Assembly (NCBI GenBank): GCA_013239625.1
Contig: MU057344.1
Coordinates: 9,026,727-9,090,726, forward strand
DNA from: Lama guanicoe
Taxonomy: Eukaryota
Direction: 5' to 3'
Length of the DNA stretch: 64,000 nucleotides
In this document: piece after piece, positions 8,441 through 9,654 of the stretch
Layout of the letters: each line of letters starts with the position of its first letter
Numbering within the stretch: the stretch's first letter is position 1
Notes under the pieces: model-generated
What the model was told of the DNA's origin: nothing
The model's database searches: none
The model's input: only the letters and a program-made list of their open reading frames with translations
Translations under genes and position numbers: made by a program

Positions 8441-9458
8441 CACAGGCTGTGTTTGTTAGGAGGCAAGGTGTAGTCATATGTTTGTTCACCATTGAGATTA
8501 ACACCGTATCTGAGGACTGTTTCTTCAGTTGGGCGACTTAATGGACCTGCCAGGTTTTGAAGGAGGGGACTTTTTTAATGTGTCTCAGATCTGTTTGATT
8601 GCTGTCCTTTTCCAAAGACGGTGTATAACGTTTTCTTGTCCTGTGTCCCCGTCTTACTGTTATTGCAGTCATACTCTCCGTTTTGCCCCACTGCTTGCCG
8701 CCAGAATGGTGACTAGGAGTATTGTTTGCAAGTCGAAACAAAGAGGAGTTGTACATGGAATTTCAGTGTCTTAATACTCTTTGATTCTTGGGTGTCTTTT
8801 GCTGGTGACAACAGTTACTATGGTTGTTATTAGTAGTCTGTTGTAGCAGTTCTGTGTGGCATAGTGTGACTATACTCTGATGTGCCTAATATTAAGGGGT
8901 GTTGACTCTGATCTCTCCTGTCACCTACTGTTATTGCTCTCCAGTGTTGGGTTGATCAAGTCGATACTTAAGAAATGAGGTACTTTAATTAAATAGGCTA
9001 AAACAGATAAAGTAATTTACGGTCAGTCTCTGGGTGAAGTGTATAAAAGGAGTTACTGATACAAACTTAAATGAAATACCAGTAAAGCTTGCTTATTCTT
9101 ATATTTTTAAAAATAAAGTCCTGAGTGCGCGTTGCCTCCGTGAGATGGCACTGGCGGCCTGTGCAACAGCAGCCAGTGCCAGTGCTCTGCTGTGTCGGAA
9201 GTCACCTTCCTAACCCCAGTGACTGTTCATCTGAGAGTGTGAGGAGAGCGGAGTGGGAGGAGGAGTGGGAGCAGCCTGGCTCCGAGGCCACCGTGCCTGG
9301 AGCAGAGCAGACCAGGTCAGAGAGGGGTCGAGTCAGACCTGTGGTCACTGTAGGGACTAGAGTAGACTTTGCTCGCGGAGGTGGGACACCTTTGGAGGTT
9401 TTTGAGCAGAATGCTTAACTTGGGTTGAAGAAAAATCTTGATCTAAAAAAATTGTTTT

Positions 9459-9532
9459 ATCAAGAGGTCCCCGGTTCACATCCGGGTGCCCCCTCCAAAA
9501 AAAATAAAATAAAATAAAATAAAAAATAAAAT
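9459..9532 (+). pseudogene. Retrocopy of the 3' half of mature tRNA-Cys(GCA), positions 38-76 including CCA, with an A-rich tail
   Basis: ATCAAGAGGTCCCCGGTTCAcATCCGGGTGCCCCCT-CCA (9459-9497) matches the recalled mammalian tRNA-Cys-GCA 3' half except at one base. Tail of A's and (TAAAA)n. TSD AATTGTTTT at 9450-9458 and 9533-9541. Confidence 0.88.
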
Positions 9533-9654
9533 AATTGTTTTTCTCTTATGGCATTGGTATTTTTGTTCTTTTTTCCCTTTGGGACACGAAAGTTTCATTT
9601 TAATAAGATATAAAGAGGAGAGTGTAGGATTCATTTACTTATTTTACTTGAAAA

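Follow-up and report, generated by a model that had tools for sequence, protein, structure and literature searches.

Tailless tRNA retropseudogenes were reportedly described by Schmitz et al. in 2004. In the account of Noll et al. (2015; PMC5322556), these elements are mobilized by L1, flanked by duplications and end at defined positions; they are 3'-truncated 5' parts of tRNAs that lack an A tail and often derive from precursors, and a second source also presents them as 5' pieces without tails (PMC3747384). The copies analyzed here share the first three properties but are mature 3' parts that carry CCA, an A tail and a base change at position 58. tRNA/LINE-1 chimeras (bioRxiv 10.1101/2025.02.02.635956) likewise contain tRNA halves that arose in a single L1 event and come with duplications and an endonuclease motif, whereas they mostly hold the 5' half (positions 1–37) in antisense orientation joined to L1 sequence; the words "CCA" and "modification" are absent from the main text of that preprint. 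The misincorporation signatures of mim-tRNAseq involve the same positions (58 and 9) and the same dominant bases, i.e., T at 58, G after G57, and C at m1G9, but are made in vitro by TGIRT (PMC8062790), whereas the changes considered here have become part of the genome itself, presumably through germline activity of ORF2p. A natural reverse transcriptase (RT) that halts at m1A58, with a second stop near position 54, and leaves a DNA record of this is found in the plus-strand strong stop at the retroviral primer binding site (PMC8599865); in that case the tRNA is a primer of which 18 nt are copied by a retroviral RT within a replication cycle, whereas in the present copies the tRNA served as a passenger template, and the RT often read through while misreading the base. 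Simple tRNA-derived SINEs, such as the Ala SINE of the genome studied here, also have a tRNA body, sometimes a CCA end, an A-rich tail and an L1-type insertion, but unlike the present copies they are high in copy number, mostly full length, derived from a master gene and A58-bearing (about 88 of 94 among the matches listed). The copies are a variant of the known L1-made tRNA retropseudogenes. In the full-text literature, outside of which lie most subscription papers and the supplements of the bioRxiv preprint, signatures of modification were found to be described for no genomic retrocopy of a tRNA, and a prior description is quite possible.

The locus from which this analysis started lies in a window of 64 kb (the whole stretch of DNA that was analyzed). 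The parts of the insert are given in Table 1, and the positions that the first-pass annotation of this DNA had assigned to its start, changed base, CCA, tail and flanking repeat all hold. The exact part of the direct repeat around the insert is 9 bp long; at random positions of the window a 9-mer is repeated 30–130 nt downstream in 0.15% of cases. At its left edge the 5' duplication has C, T and then an A run, which resembles an L1 endonuclease site. The L1 endonuclease consensus is TT/AAAA, of which this edge is a variant. A duplication within the range expected for L1 target-primed reverse transcription (TPRT) products, about 7–20 bp, a 3' A-rich tail and an endonuclease-like T/A-run site, all hallmarks of such products, are present. 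The base directly 5' of A38 (9459) is the T of the duplication and not G37, so that the tRNA match begins at 38, or at 39 if that A is untemplated. No tRNA gene was called by ARAGORN in the 64-kb window and Rfam gave sub-threshold matches only on the insert locus, as expected of half a molecule. The insert is without positions 1–37, and so without the full cloverleaf with A and B boxes of a functional tRNA gene, and its intact 3' end, CCA and tail set it apart from tailless retropseudogenes.

Table 1. Features of the tRNA-Cys insert at 9450–9541 of the window.
Feature	Position	Strand	Remarks
5' target-site duplication	9445..9458	+	9450–9458 exact; 14–15 bp with one mismatch in the A run
tRNA-Cys(GCA) positions 38–73	9459..9494	+	Identical to six genes of the same genome except at position 58
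Position 58	9479..9479	+	C; A in all 21 listed genes; likely RT misread of m1A58
CCA	9495..9497	+	Encoded after 0 of 21 listed Cys genes; mark of a mature tRNA template
A-rich tail	9498..9532	+	35 nt, decays into A4T-type repeat; last 5 nt may be duplication
3' target-site duplication, exact part	9533..9541	+	Repeat of 9450–9458

The parent genes were sought in the whole 2.05-Gb assembly with Cys positions 39–73, allowing up to 3 mismatches, and with the reversed pattern as control; the search gave 22 rows, the insert and 21 tRNA-Cys genes, against none for the control. Six of the 21 genes differ from the insert at position 58 only (A to C), in line with the sole mismatch given in the first-pass annotation, and the CpG sites of the insert are unchanged relative to the parent genes. 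A58 and G37 are present in all 21 genes, none of which is followed by CCA, and across all tRNA types CCA follows 1 of 151 gene calls. The gene concerned is a tRNA-Ala(AGC) (L279:5221-5295), where the CCA is likely due to chance. A source that already carries C58 was found neither among the 21 Cys genes nor in the tRNA-derived SINE of this genome, which is of Ala type and retains A58. The form of the insert is single-copy in the genome and the other Cys copies differ in ends and bases, which argues against a SINE family. The CCA, the tail, the duplication and the CCA-less parent genes support the original assignment of the insert as a retrocopy that has L1-type hallmarks and whose template was a mature tRNA-Cys ending in CCA.

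To place the insert among related copies, four genome searches were made for Cys, Phe, Asn and Arg-CCT, each with a control. The query consisted of positions 59–76 and five A only, and the searches are therefore blind to base 58. They returned 9 rows for Cys (0 in the control), 37 for Phe (15), 22 for Asn (4) and 19 for Arg-CCT (8). A filter of at most 2 non-CpG differences at positions 59–73, no more than 1 in CCA, and 7 or more A among the 10 nt that follow was passed by 50 of these 87 rows, and 47 were kept (Phe 25, Asn 8, Cys 7, Arg 7) after removal of two SINE rows (L107 and L198) and a segmental duplicate (L186); the 37 filter failures include L348, which is treated apart below. One copy with T at 58 and 6 differences (L041) was left out as its parent gene is outside the comparison library. 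Parent genes of all four types were taken from the same genome, those of Phe as a sample with 2 variants, and A58 is found in every listed parent gene (21 Cys, 11 Asn and 7 Arg-CCT). Duplications with a score of at least 8 flank 31 of the 47 copies as compared to 4% of mismatched flank pairs. Narrower generic patterns gave matches at about control level overall and were used for seeds only; one of them required a base other than A at 58 and does not enter the counts. One search with T fixed at 58 served only to locate Arg-CCT genes. Generic motifs also picked out other abbreviated tRNA ends, each with CCA, an A tail and a duplication.

Most copies that extend beyond position 58 have another base there than their gene. 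Read-through was defined as a match to the gene upstream of 58 with a score of at least 4, by which 0.86 false read-throughs are expected. Without the four seeds, 15 of 18 strict read-through copies differ from the gene at 58 (T in 12, G in 2, C in 1; A in the remaining 3), against a background of 7 differences at 220 non-CpG sites of positions 59–73 (about 3%), a rate that is biased low by the search; duplication pairs, for comparison, differ at 17 of 315 sites. The excess has P=1e-8 even with a background of 20%. Under a looser rule that includes the seeds, 24 of 28 copies carry a change at 58, and no other scored position is changed in more than 3 of 28. The enrichment of mismatches at 58 for which the first-pass annotation had proposed to test other CCA- and poly(A)-bearing tRNA-Cys copies is strong among the independent copies of the four tRNA types. 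The new base is mostly T, a transversion (12 of 15; P=3e-4 vs. one third), while C is rare (2 of the 24 changes in the looser set). A G at 58 is confined to copies in which G57 precedes it (5 of 17, and 0 of 14 of the others; P=0.048, pooled and including short copies and L348), which agrees with the context dependence of the TGIRT m1A signature. In the mim-tRNAseq data, human Cys-GCA, with about 90% misincorporation at A58, has T at 0.78–0.81, C at 0.06–0.07 and G at 0.04, whereas human Arg-CCT has G at about 0.6 (PMC8062790). For human Phe-GAA-1 misincorporation at 58 is 0.64–0.74 in the same data (PMC8062790), and 9 of 12 strict Phe copies differ at this position; the modification levels used in these comparisons are those of human, a species other than Lama guanicoe.

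The Ala SINE served as a control, in the form of a generic search for T-loop, CCA and A-run that it dominates (123 matches, of which 100 were considered). Among the matches listed are 94 SINE-like rows that share the loop and the tail; as judged by eye, about 6 of them have a changed base at 58, five by A to G. Twenty low-scoring tRNA matches (L403–L422) were all SINEs, and A58 was found in 20 of 20. This tRNA-Ala-derived SINE, which we take to be vic-1, is abundant (L023–L052 and L403–L422), some of its copies have CCA and an A tail, and ARAGORN and Rfam call it a tRNA. The excess at 58 in unselected read-through copies, relative both to neighboring sites and to the SINE, means that misreading of m1A58 by RT is well supported as the origin of the change across the copies.

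A58 is retained in 4 of the 28 read-through copies, and other patterns gave further examples (two Ala, one Phe and one Asn). The A58-keeping copies are not younger, with a mean of 2.5 differences at positions 59–73 against 1.3. Partial modification could explain them; several human Ala isodecoders have misincorporation of 0.4–0.5 at 58 in the mim-tRNAseq data (PMC8062790). Ala is outside the blind counts, since these would be swamped by the Ala SINE. Two of the Ala matches (L140 and L150) are true 3' copies of tRNA-Ala that start at 52–53, have clear duplications and retain A58. An Asn 3' copy (L296; G000:C7349:261108) has a duplication, an A tail, a non-CCA end and A58. Its template may have been a precursor before methylation, a suggestion from this one case.

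A single copy (L348, also L401; G000:C6178:9823769-9823845) spans the whole of tRNA-Arg(CCT); it ends in CCA followed by an A tail, and the duplication around it measures about 17 bp. Compared with seven listed Arg-CCT genes it differs at positions 8, 9 (G to C), 36–37 (one change and one inserted base), 58 (A to G) and 63. The main TGIRT signatures of human Arg-CCT are G9 to C (0.67–0.72) and A58 to G (0.60–0.63) in the same data (PMC8062790); the changes of L348 at 9 and 58 match these m1G9 and m1A58 signatures, while those at 36–37 and 63 are without a listed signature. As L348 reads past m1G9, an m1G need not halt the enzyme, and its full length indicates that whole tRNAs serve as templates too.

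The 5' ends give a less uniform picture. A clear extension above 58 is missing from 18 of the 47 copies and measurable in the other 29, which start at 54–55 (18 copies), 51–53 (7), 44–49 (3) and 38 (1, the insert). Duplications that reach 59–60 are found in 4–5 of all 47 copies. With 18 of 29 starts at 54–55 there is no pile-up at 38 of the kind that the annotation had proposed to look for; only 1 of 47 copies, and 1 of 7 Cys copies, starts there, the others at 44 or later and mostly at 54–60. For a comparison of starts in G37 tRNAs, the searches for Pro, Trp, Tyr and His gave no long copies. The 54–55 and 59–60 starts have what are presumably the sizes of tRF-3b and tRF-3a. Ends at 59 and at 54–55 coincide with such tRF-3 sizes as well as with RT stops, which are known at m1A58 and, in tRNA-Lys3, at m5Um54 (PMC8599865). 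Chance alone would seldom place a start precisely at 38, yet there is one such copy only. The annotation had read it as a stop at m1G37, and this fits the misincorporation of about 70% at human Cys-GCA G37, a position annotated as m1G (0.67–0.73; PMC8062790), but a single copy looks the same as a half cut in the anticodon loop. A stop at m1G37 is the somewhat favored explanation of this start, whereas a half cut beforehand in the anticodon loop is rather unlikely and random truncation improbable.

More generally, the templates may already have been fragments, i.e., an anticodon-loop-cut 3' half for the insert and 18- or 22-nt tRF-3 for the short copies, the ends being nuclease cuts. From the preferences of angiogenin and RNase L the Cys loop would be cut before 36 or 35, not 38, and on a template cut there RT would still meet G37. 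The clustering of the starts at the two tRF-3 sizes speaks for pre-cut templates, as does the uptake of tRNA halves by L1, seen in chimeras whose 5' halves end where cleavage is known to occur (bioRxiv 10.1101/2025.02.02.635956). The same two places are however those of the m1A58 and m5Um54 stops (PMC8599865), and L348 is a case of a whole-tRNA template. Fragmented templates are thus a tentative possibility, under which the m1A58 misread would still hold.

The reading that is preferred with good confidence takes the insert as a 3' half from a mature, CCA-bearing tRNA-Cys, likely copied into the germline by LINE-1 ORF2p, with a changed base that likely records a misread of m1A58. ORF2p would have nicked the T/A-run site, primed on the A tail, copied CCA and the acceptor and T arms, put in a wrong base at m1A58 and come to a halt at A38, next to G37. 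That the enzyme was ORF2p is suggested by the L1 hallmarks only, and m1A58 as the cause of the change and m1G37 as the cause of the stop are presumed. The tail might have been added to the tRNA by oligoadenylation, or the RT might have jumped to the tRNA from the poly(A) of another RNA. Template jumping occurs in non-LTR and group II intron RTs. It is from this jumping, together with the L1 chimeras (bioRxiv 10.1101/2025.02.02.635956), that one would suppose that the tRNA itself carried no A tail, ORF2p having started on an L1 or SINE poly(A) before switching to the 3' CCA end of the tRNA. The tail abuts CCA without a spacer in 38 of 47 copies, as such a switch would have it, although this is a feature that the searches demanded. 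Against it, three Asn copies (L220, L224 and L239), all with T at 58, end in C and an A tail in place of CCA, which fits trimmed, oligoadenylated tRNA decay intermediates, and a template switch is a tentative possibility.

It is very unlikely that the insert is an ordinary 5'-truncated retrocopy in which the change at 58 is a later neutral mutation and the start at 38 is due to chance. 5' truncation is common among L1 products, a single change in 36 nt is unremarkable alone, and A to C is a minority change in the copy set. The insert is however otherwise unchanged, CpG sites included, the excess at 58 is class-wide (24 of 28 vs. about 3%), and the estimated likelihood of its base is about 7% under misreading as compared to about 0.3% under neutral change. 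The base of the insert is C where T is usual; since C is rare among misreads the C58 of the insert could be an ordinary mutation, but the chance of this is slight and it is very probably a misread. An unseen variant gene or small SINE master already altered at 58 would be conceivable from the sampled Phe genes (2 variants) and a possibly incomplete assembly, but is hardly credible with A58 in all listed Cys, Asn and Arg-CCT genes and with copies that span four tRNA types, differing 5' ends and three different bases at 58.

The wider proposition is evenly balanced: mammalian genomes may contain a class, so far undescribed, of 3' tRNA retrocopies with CCA and an A tail into which L1 ORF2p wrote germline tRNA modifications, as misreads of m1A58 and m1G9 and as stops at 58, 54 and m1G37. 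If this is true, copies dated by orthology would tell which tRNA sites were modified in ancestral germlines, and roughly to what extent, and also which errors ORF2p makes in vivo when its template is modified. DNA does not normally preserve modifications of RNA, and the copies would be a datable record of tRNA methylation in past germlines that can be read from any mammalian assembly. They also show which tRNA forms are taken by L1, i.e., mature, CCA-ended and mostly shortened near the T loop, and how ORF2p behaves at blocked bases in vivo. As the copies carry CCA and a mismatch that tRNA-seq pipelines score as m1A58, they are decoys able to capture or mimic reads of 3' fragments.

Some observations concern the distribution of the copies and the surroundings of the insert. 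Two Phe copies (L062 and L063; G000:C9521) lie 0.68 Mb apart with common flanks, which indicates one insertion inside a segmental duplication. There is an apparently strong bias in tRNA type, with 25 Phe copies kept but 0 tailed copies for Pro, Trp, Tyr, His and Asp; as search designs differed between types, the bias is no more than a lead. A Pro search with the whole gene, which like all whole-gene DNA searches detects long matches only, gave 21 full-length gene-like matches and one contig-end piece but no tailed copy. Positions 50–73 of Trp, Tyr, His and Asp, the last being a low-m1A58 control, gave genes only and one short, tailless Trp-like match followed by CCA, with patterns that are CpG-rich and so blind to old copies.

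The insert looks young, having no CpG decay, but shared. In all of 4 runs, which carry four organism labels, contigs contained its right flank together with the final 15 nt of the tail and showed no loose end, though such contigs drop rare variants; no empty allele was seen in these 4 runs at the right flank, the side that was covered. The insert is most likely inert and has no sign of function, and no Pfam match was obtained in 56 of the 153 open frames of the window. On the + strand of the window (1–64000) there is more T than A (20037 vs. 16849) and more G than C, a skew that suggests an intron transcribed on the + strand.
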